Assembly: GCA_000004695.1 (NCBI GenBank)
Contig: CM000151.3
Coordinates: 6,176,001 to 6,240,000 of the forward strand
Reading direction: 5' to 3'
DNA: 64,000 bases
DNA from: Dictyostelium discoideum
Taxonomy: Eukaryota
A program made the translations under genes and the position numbers. The notes beneath the pieces were generated by a model. That model had not been told where the DNA came from. It made no database searches and was given only the letters and a program-made list of their open reading frames with translations. Positions 3,943 to 4,801 of this stretch are shown piece by piece (the first letter of the stretch is position 1; each line of letters starts with the position of its first letter).

Positions 3943-4801
3943 ATGTCAAAAGTCCAAACACAAATTTCTGATTATGAGTAAATATTTATAGAATTAAAAA
4001 AAAAAAAAAAATTAAAATTAAATTAAATTAATATTAATTTAATATAATCTATTATTATTATTATTATTATTATTATTATTATTATTATTATTATTATTAT
4101 TATTATTATTATTATTATTATTATTATTATTATTATTATTATTATTATTATTATTATTATATTATTATTATTATTGTTGTTAAAGTTTTTTATTTAAAAT
4201 ATTAGTAATTGGTGATAGAGGAGTTGGTAAAAGTAGTTTAATAGTTAGATTTGCAGATGATAATTTTACAGATTCATTTATTTCAACAATTGGTGTTGAT
4301 TTTAAAATTAAAACAATCTATTTAGAAGGTAAAGCAATTAAAACTCAAATTTGGGATACGATGGGGCAAGATAGATTTAGAATGGGAAATAATAATTCAA
4401 TCTTTTATCGTGGTGCACATGGTATAATAGTTGTATATGATGTTACAGATCAAGGTACTTTTAAAAATGTTGCTCAATGGTTGGGTGAAGTTGATAGATA
4501 TGCACGCGAAGATGTGAGTAAATTAATTGTAGCTAATAAAATTGATTTGGTTGAAAAAAGAGTGGTTGATTCTGATGTTGCAAAATCATTTTGTGATGTT
4601 TATGAAATACCAACTATTGAAACAAGTGCAAAATATGCAACCAATGTTGATGATTGTTTCATTTTAATGGCTAAAACTATTAAAAATAGACTTGAACAAA
4701 TTGAAGCAGAACCACAAATTCCTCAAAAACCAACTCCAACTATTAGAAATGCAAATAATAATAATAGTTTTAAAAAAAAGGAAACCTGTACAATTAATTA
4801 A
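3943..4801 (+). CDS. Divergent Rab-like small GTPase. Two exons: 3943..3977 and 4186..4801. CAAX-like C-terminus CTIN
   Basis: Exon 1 encodes [11 protein letters not shown] plus 2 nt, followed by a GTAAAT donor. Exon 2 after the acceptor AAAG restores the canonical Rab N-terminus [19 protein letters not shown]. Also has TIGVDF, an atypical G3 [10 protein letters not shown]4 VANKIDL and G5 ETSAKY. The intron carries an (ATT)n microsatellite. Confidence 0.7.
4051..4178. repeat. (ATT)n microsatellite inside intron 1 of the Rab-like gene
   Basis: About 40 perfect ATT units are visible directly in the sequence. Confidence 0.9.

Follow-up and report, generated by a model that had tools for sequence, protein, structure and literature searches.

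Rab1-derived GTPases with CxIN tails in the Dictyostelium discoideum species group, and probable reference errors at one of their loci

The closest described relatives of the genes treated here are the Rab1/Ypt1 proteins, with WDTAGQE in switch II and two cysteines at the C-terminus. Switch II is the binding platform for REP and GDI, and in Rab1 it is also the site modified by Legionella-type effectors. Replacing the Gln of switch II should lower intrinsic hydrolysis, given how catalysis proceeds in the Ras superfamily, and Rab24, Rab25, Rnd and Rap are naturally GTPase-impaired small GTPases that lack this residue. GAP-driven hydrolysis need not be lost, since the Gln finger comes in trans from TBC RabGAPs. 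A further set of relatives is formed by the single-Cys CaaX-type Rabs (Rab8, Rab13, Rab18, Rab23 and Rab28); single-Cys Rabs other than those described here are mono-geranylgeranylated via REP/RabGGTase, and Asn at the X position of a CaaX box is not a canonical determinant for either FTase or GGTase-I. Membership of the Rab family is reportedly judged, after Pereira-Leal and Seabra, on the RabF1–F5 motifs (IGVDF, KLQIW, RFRSIT, YYRGA and LVYDIT).

The window analysed here is the whole of a 64,000-nt stretch of D. discoideum AX4 chromosome 2 (GCA_000004695.1, contig CM000151.3, positions 6,176,001 to 6,240,000), in which GC content ranges from 16 to 37%, reflecting extreme AT richness. Positions below are those of the window. 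Three of its loci, called gene 1, gene 2 (RabH) and locus 3, encode Rab-like proteins with a CxIN tail. We consider it probable that these belong to a Rab1-derived CxIN set in the D. discoideum species group and that the frameshifts at locus 3 are errors of the AX4 reference.

Rab genes of the window and their relatives

The three loci were spliced by hand and their products matched to AX4 protein entries (Table 1). The products of gene 1 and gene 2 are exact matches to XP_643379.1/Q552K3 (named ‘Rab GTPase’) and to RabH (Q86JC8), respectively, and the product of 2436..3411 is an exact match to XP_001134601.1/Q1ZXK9; Q552K3, RabH and Q1ZXK9 all lie on the 8,484,197-bp AX4 chromosome 2 record. 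These are therefore already annotated genes. The CxIN ‘family’ is a known, annotated and lineage-specific set of Rab1 derivatives, and the current understanding of Rabs is unchanged by any of our results. A literature search on Dictyostelium RabH, RabG and RabF, and on prenylation of Dictyostelium Rab CAAX motifs, found nothing specific.

Table 1. Positions of the Rab genes and of the AX4-specific patch within the window
Feature	Position	Strand	Description
Neighbour Rab Q1ZXK9	2436..3411	+	Exons 2436-2654, 2813-2947, 3029-3218 and 3317-3411; WDTAGQE, CCK
Gene 1 exon 1	3943..3977	+	35 nt; phase-2 end within the Asp codon that precedes FLFK; exact protein match
Gene 1 intron	3978..4185	+	GT..AG, 208 nt; (ATT)50 at 4027-4175
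Gene 1 exon 2 through stop	4186..4801	+	P-loop GDRGVGKS; tail KKKETCTIN
rabH (Q86JC8)	32676..33272	-	Single exon, 198 aa; GDWNVGKS, TDTSGME, ASKFD, ETSSK, tail KKKGCSIN
Locus 3 exon 3 through TAA	36260..36806	-	LDTPGNQ, (GNKCD), (ETSAK), QKNNCIIN; frame-broken here, intact in other assemblies
Discrepant patch	36395..36570	-	176 bp; 13 substitutions and 8 one-base indels vs L001
Locus 3 intron 2	36807..36967	-	Phase 1, in the Gly codon of P-loop GK[ST]; ~41 AAT/ATT units
Locus 3 exon 2	36968..37008	-	41 nt; encodes (E)YLFKIIVIGDSGV(G)
Locus 3 intron 1	37009..37101	-	93 nt, phase 2; contains a 37-nt homopolymer run
Locus 3 exon 1 (ATGAATGAATATGA)	37102..37115	-	14 nt, phase-2 donor

The original prediction had described three Rab-like loci with DTMGQD, DTSGME and DTPGNQ in switch II and with the tails CTIN, CSIN and CIIN, all of which are present. 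In each tail, one Cys stands at position -4 with Ile at a2; this layout is acceptable in a CaaX-type Rab, but the classical double Cys is absent. Gene 1 encodes a protein of 216 aa with a Pfam Ras domain (PF00071, E 3.9e-52), switch II WDTMGQD, the C-terminus CTIN and all of the canonical G1–G5 motifs; Met occupies the position of Ras A59 and Arg that of Ras G12 (GDRGVGKS). When aligned with other Rabs, its switch II carries a two-residue insertion, and its RabF1–F5 motifs read IGVDF, KTQIW, RFRMG, FYRGA and VVYDVT (about 5/5). Gene 1 retains the catalytic Gln, so the loss of this residue, which the original prediction had named together with its displacement, applies to RabH (Met) and locus 3 (Asn) only. 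In RabH (PF00071, E 8.1e-45), four of the five G motifs deviate (GDWNVGKS, T to S, DTSGM, SKFD and SSK), and the deviations are kept in its orthologs; its RabF1–F5 motifs align as MGEHF, DLQIT, KFRSL, FYSNL and IVYDIS (about 2–3/5). The AlphaFold model of RabH (pLDDT 81.6, with residues 179–198 forming a disordered tail) has human Rab1b/Rab1a as its closest PDB structures, at a TM-score of about 0.9 and an rmsd of 1.7 Å. In the intact allele of locus 3 the G1–G5 motifs are all present except for the Gln to Asn change, an ortholog carries PF00071, and the alignment gives IGVDL, KLQIL, RFKVT, a missing YYRGA and IVYDVT (about 3/5).

Against solved structures, the best matches of all three proteins were Rab1A/B/Ypt1 (236, 147 and 177 bits), followed by the next subfamily at 176, 126 and 139 bits, giving Rab1 margins of 60, about 20 and 38. 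The proteins had been predicted to stand apart from ordinary Rab subfamilies with standard motifs; their nearest subfamily is an ordinary one, Rab1, while their motifs are indeed non-standard. Gene 1 is about 60–65% identical to Rab1/Ypt1 across eukaryotes, and both gene 1 and locus 3 largely retain the N-terminal motif of YDYLFK type together with IGVDF, KLQIW and VYDVTD. In contrast to Rab1/Ypt1, the CxIN proteins lack WDTAGQE, have the single Cys of CxIN in place of the C-terminal CC and have a rewritten switch II/alpha2 (TITSSYYRGAHG region), with two extra residues in gene 1 and no YYRGA in locus 3; they are also much faster-evolving (63–79% identity between D. discoideum and D. citrinum). 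DTAGQE is present in 219 stored Rab1-like hits, whereas gene 1, RabH and locus 3 have neither DTAGQE nor a CC/CXC tail.

The single prenylatable Cys four residues from the end, preceded by a polybasic stretch in gene 1 and RabH, recalls the CaaX-type Rabs. The difference is the Asn at X, which is conserved over four CxIN orthogroups, and of 245 stored Rab1-like hits, the 19 that have the CxIN tail are all Dictyostelium proteins. The resemblance to Rab24, Rab25, Rnd and Rap lies at the position equivalent to Ras Q61, where RabH has Met, the locus-3 group Asn or His, RabF1 Glu and a D. citrinum paralog Cys; RabH differs from those GTPases in that it also alters G1, G4 and G5 and, judged from these motifs, would approach a pseudo-GTPase.

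The CxIN set appears to fall into at least four orthogroups, those of Q552K3, RabH, locus 3 and RabF, with the CaaX-like C-x-I-N tail in common. In a neighbour-joining tree the four orthogroups each received 100% bootstrap; their placement relative to canonical Rab1 had a support of 0–22%, and the deeper nodes among the CxIN groups leave monophyly unsettled. RabF1 (Q558I0) and the RabF-like proteins are the closest AX4 paralogs of locus 3 (about 51% identity). RabF1 shares with locus 3 the KNNCIIN ending, the species group and a replaced catalytic Gln (DTAGEK), but RabF is a separate orthogroup with 100% bootstrap. In D. cf. discoideum and D. firmibasis the RabF-like proteins retain DT[AS]GQE, and therefore the CxIN tail and the switch II changes are not coupled. 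A further AX4 chromosome 2 entry, XP_644326.1, is identical to RabF1 Q558I0 except at the C-terminus, which ends in ...EKNNFLKTNNNT instead of ...EKNNCIIN, so that the prenylation Cys is removed; this entry represents a duplicate with an altered tail, or else the gene model or the sequence is discrepant. An exact look-up of this AX4 paralog, XP_644326, gave no match.

Orthologs of gene 1 were found in D. cf. discoideum, D. citrinum, D. dimigraforme and D. firmibasis, with DT[MIV]GQD, DSVGQE or DSIPQE in switch II and with the tails CTIN, CIIN or CAIN. For RabH, orthologs came to light in the D. discoideum/D. citrinum complex alone, where the aberrant motifs are conserved in four loci as GDWNVGK, DTSGME, SK[FIL]D, TSSK and CSIN; the identical RabH protein is also present in assembly GCA_054883475.1. 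The locus-3 orthologs have DT[PA]GNQ or DIPGHQ and the tail CIIN. Identity to D. citrinum is 76% for gene 1, 79% for RabH and 63% for locus 3, and 95% for the Rab5-like neighbour, and dN/dS lies at 0.31–0.38 for gene 1, 0.23–0.51 for RabH and, between species, 0.24–0.49 for locus 3. From these values, the CxIN group is under purifying selection, and is therefore constrained but fast-evolving. In D. citrinum an extra tandem paralog adjoins the RabH ortholog (L005:10506-11099), with no counterpart at the window position; its motifs read GDSGCGKT, YDSGGCE (with Cys replacing the catalytic Gln), GNKSD and TSAK, with QCSIN as the tail.

Locus 3: gene structure and reading frame

Locus 3 had been placed at 37110..36290; our model extends it at both ends, to 37115..36260. 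The phase-1 intron that splits the P-loop Gly codon and is full of trinucleotide repeats is present as originally described. Gene 1 and locus 3 had also been credited with an identical exon architecture. The first intron does agree in position and phase, lying in phase 2 in the D/E codon before [FY]LFK at a homologous position in the two genes, whereas exon 1 measures 35 nt in gene 1 and 14 nt in locus 3. An upstream ATG at 37133, which would give an exon 1 of about 11 codons, was rejected: among the relatives it is out of frame in one (L003) and absent in another (L004), which is the reason for the 14-nt exon 1. Intron length varies at both genes. At gene 1, D. cf. discoideum has an orthologous intron of 180 nt and D. 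citrinum one of 69 nt, and the P-loop intron of locus 3 measures 161, 89 and 403 nt in three relatives.

In D. cf. discoideum (GCA_054859235.1; L004:6091-6676) the microsatellite-filled P-loop intron is precisely missing, and this absence confirms the predicted exon junction independently of RNA data. With lengths of 89–403 nt in D. discoideum and D. citrinum, the intron constitutes a clean presence/absence polymorphism among close relatives. Synteny is maintained in three other assemblies, where a CRAL-TRIO gene, locus 3, a MOSC gene and then RabH follow one another.

In AX4 the spliced locus 3 is 602 nt long and meets its first stop after residue 102. That its 3' half is frame-broken was correctly predicted, although the number of lesions is eight one-base indels and not merely the minimum of three proposed. 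We aligned window positions 43330..22659 with 20.6 kb around RabH in the near-isogenic assembly GCA_054883475.1 (L001), where the lesions are not reproduced: locus 3 is there an uninterrupted Rab ORF of 199 aa with GNKCD and ETSAK. Across the 20.6 kb, the two sequences differ by 17 substitutions, 13 of which fall inside the patch 36395..36570, together with eight of the 10 one-base indels that lie outside homopolymers; beyond the patch, four substitutions remain in about 20.4 kb. The other ~680 bp of locus 3, including both introns and the ~120-nt microsatellite, are unchanged save for the length of one poly-T run. Thirteen substitutions in 176 bp depart from the background rate with a Poisson p of about 1.5e-29. 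At 23 of 24 sites the AX4 state in the patch is unique to AX4, at positions conserved out to D. citrinum, and comparison of the patch with four orthologous alleles gave a match to none. Intact locus-3 orthologs exist in five further assemblies, D. citrinum included, so that six are intact in total (187–200 aa), and the ORF has been maintained across a dS of about 0.5.

Since locus 3 is intact in a near-identical strain, the frameshifts are, on the strength of these sequence comparisons, most likely due to faulty base calls within 176 bp of the AX4 chromosome 2 reference, and locus 3 most likely is a functional gene missing from the AX4 annotation. Sequencing error was a caveat that the original prediction had itself attached to its pseudogene call. 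Sequencing of AX4 mutation-accumulation lines gave a mutation rate of 2.9e-11 per site per generation and revealed 1916 differences from the reference common to the lines, which its authors put down to reference errors, to an ancestral clone that differed from the reference, or to mutations predating the lines (PMC3466296). The intact locus-3 protein is recorded from one NCBI assembly only, and the strain of GCA_054883475.1 might be a close wild relative rather than a member of the NC4/AX lineage. Exact look-ups of two AX4-only frameshifted ORFs (75 and 35 aa) in public assemblies returned no record, and therefore provide neither independent confirmation nor direct refutation of the AX4 state. 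The substitution spectrum of the patch (eight A<->T, two transitions) was considered as a test of error against mutation and set aside: it is not clearly different from natural divergence in this AT-rich genome, whose most frequent natural changes likewise are A<->T transversions, and so fails to separate the two.

The alternative with the best standing, to which we give a minor but appreciable chance, is that the disruption of locus 3 is real and goes back to one clustered event in the lineage of AX4 (or NC4), such as gene conversion from an unsampled decayed paralog or error-prone break repair. AX4 would then hold a very young, strain-specific pseudogene, with the gene kept by close relatives. 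The lesions do stand in the deposited reference, AX4 has no annotated locus-3 protein (its best AX4 match is only 51% identical), and 188 pseudogenes are catalogued in dictyBase (PMC3466296). However, the AX4 states fit none of the orthologous alleles, and L001 is essentially identical over the remainder of the gene, introns included, and over 20 kb of flanking sequence. As donors, the paralogs of the window (40–50% protein identity) are too divergent and would have brought far more changes, and with no known allele matched either, conversion from them was rejected. The reading of a real lesion is also opposed by a second cluster of differences, an intergenic one at 38061..38090 (two one-base indels and one substitution in 30 bp), which likewise looks like a matter of local sequence quality.

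The cluster at 38061..38090 suggests that local low-quality stretches occur beyond locus 3 too. All other length differences from L001 across 22659..43330 fall in A/T homopolymers, where AX4 is always longer, by 2–20 bases, which has the look of a systematic difference in technology between the assemblies.

Ordinary recent pseudogenisation, with frameshifts accumulating under relaxed selection, had been the original prediction for this ‘decaying copy’, and we regard it as very improbable. It would account for several frameshifts in one sequence; locus 3 is moreover the fastest-evolving of the four Rab genes (with 63% identity to D. citrinum, where the neighbour has 95%), and dN/dS reaches 0.79 in the closest pair, a within-species comparison with low counts and thus few changes behind it. 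Yet the interspecies dN/dS is lower (0.24–0.49), the ORF is intact in all six other assemblies, and every lesion is packed into the 176 bp, a pattern that independent mutation at 2.9e-11 per site per generation cannot produce (PMC3466296). Gradual decay is therefore not supported. That L001 is wrong and AX4 right can practically be dismissed, for although L001 mainly differs by shorter homopolymers, as is typical of long-read assemblies, its errors would need to have restored an open frame of 199 codons by chance, with residues identical to four other lineages at 23/24 sites, GNKCD and ETSAK included.

With reference errors as the preferred explanation, the patch is probably what keeps an intact Rab gene out of the AX4 protein set. 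It is a point for reference curation, and any ‘pseudogene’ call at 36395..36570 deserves rechecking.

Predicted lipidation and GTP hydrolysis

The G domain of the CxIN proteins is expected to fold like that of Rab1. Prenylation of the Cys at -4 would fall either to RabGGTase/REP, as it does in single-Cys Rabs, or to a CaaX prenyltransferase, after which the -xIN tripeptide may be clipped and the Cys methylated; the polybasic KKK before the Cys in gene 1 and RabH would add electrostatic membrane affinity. Yeast FTase accepts the majority of CXXX sequences except where a2 is D, E, K or R or X is K, P or R, and Ile at a2 is favourable (PMC10320760). The CxIN tails, with Ile at a2 and Asn at X, are allowed by these rules, and farnesylation is therefore plausible as far as sequence can indicate; mono-geranylgeranylation via REP/RabGGTase would be equally possible by analogy with other Rabs.

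Very low intrinsic GTPase activity is expected for RabH (Gln to Met, W-N in the P-loop, NKxD to SKFD, SAK to SSK) and for locus 3 (Gln to Asn). RabH may in addition bind nucleotide atypically, with its G1, G4 and G5 changes pointing to atypical nucleotide handling.

The rewritten switch II, the conserved CaaX-like tail and the rapid evolution could also hint at something more specific, namely that the CxIN proteins are a Dictyostelium-specific clade of Rab1-derived, GTPase-impaired membrane anchors. If so, they could have escaped from the REP/RabGGTase/GDI cycle into CaaX-type (farnesyl) lipidation, and might perhaps be decoys or resistant variants where amoebae and intracellular bacteria are in conflict. 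We think this unlikely. Taken simply as Rab1 derivatives, four orthogroups with a genus-restricted CxIN tail and with Gln replaced by Met, Asn/His, Glu or Cys form a natural series, which could test the dependence of Rabs on a cis-Gln and on double prenylation; its biological value is modest.

Neighbouring genes

The gene at 2436..3411, originally described as a canonical Rab with WDTAGQE and CCK, does carry both motifs; its product is Rab5/Ypt51/Rab22-like and falls outside the CxIN group. In the automatic annotation of GCA_054883475.1, this Rab5-like gene and gene 1 (window 2436..4801) are merged into a 408-aa product, an annotation artefact because the AX4 models are separate genes 530 bp apart.

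A fifth small-GTPase gene lies at 47011..48553 (+), with modelled exons 47011-47086 and 47313-48553 and a product of 438 aa. Its P-loop is interrupted by a phase-1 intron (GLSG|VGKT) filled with (AAT)n, its switch II reads WDSGGHD, and a long Asn/Gly-rich C-terminal extension has no prenylation Cys. The exact 438-aa model was not found in the protein collection, and its splicing may differ from the annotation.

At about 40375..43181, two neighbouring genes whose products in L001 measure 428 and 468 aa contain internal DNA segments that are 86–92% identical, which indicates a local tandem duplication; their counterpart in another strain carries an acyltransferase domain.
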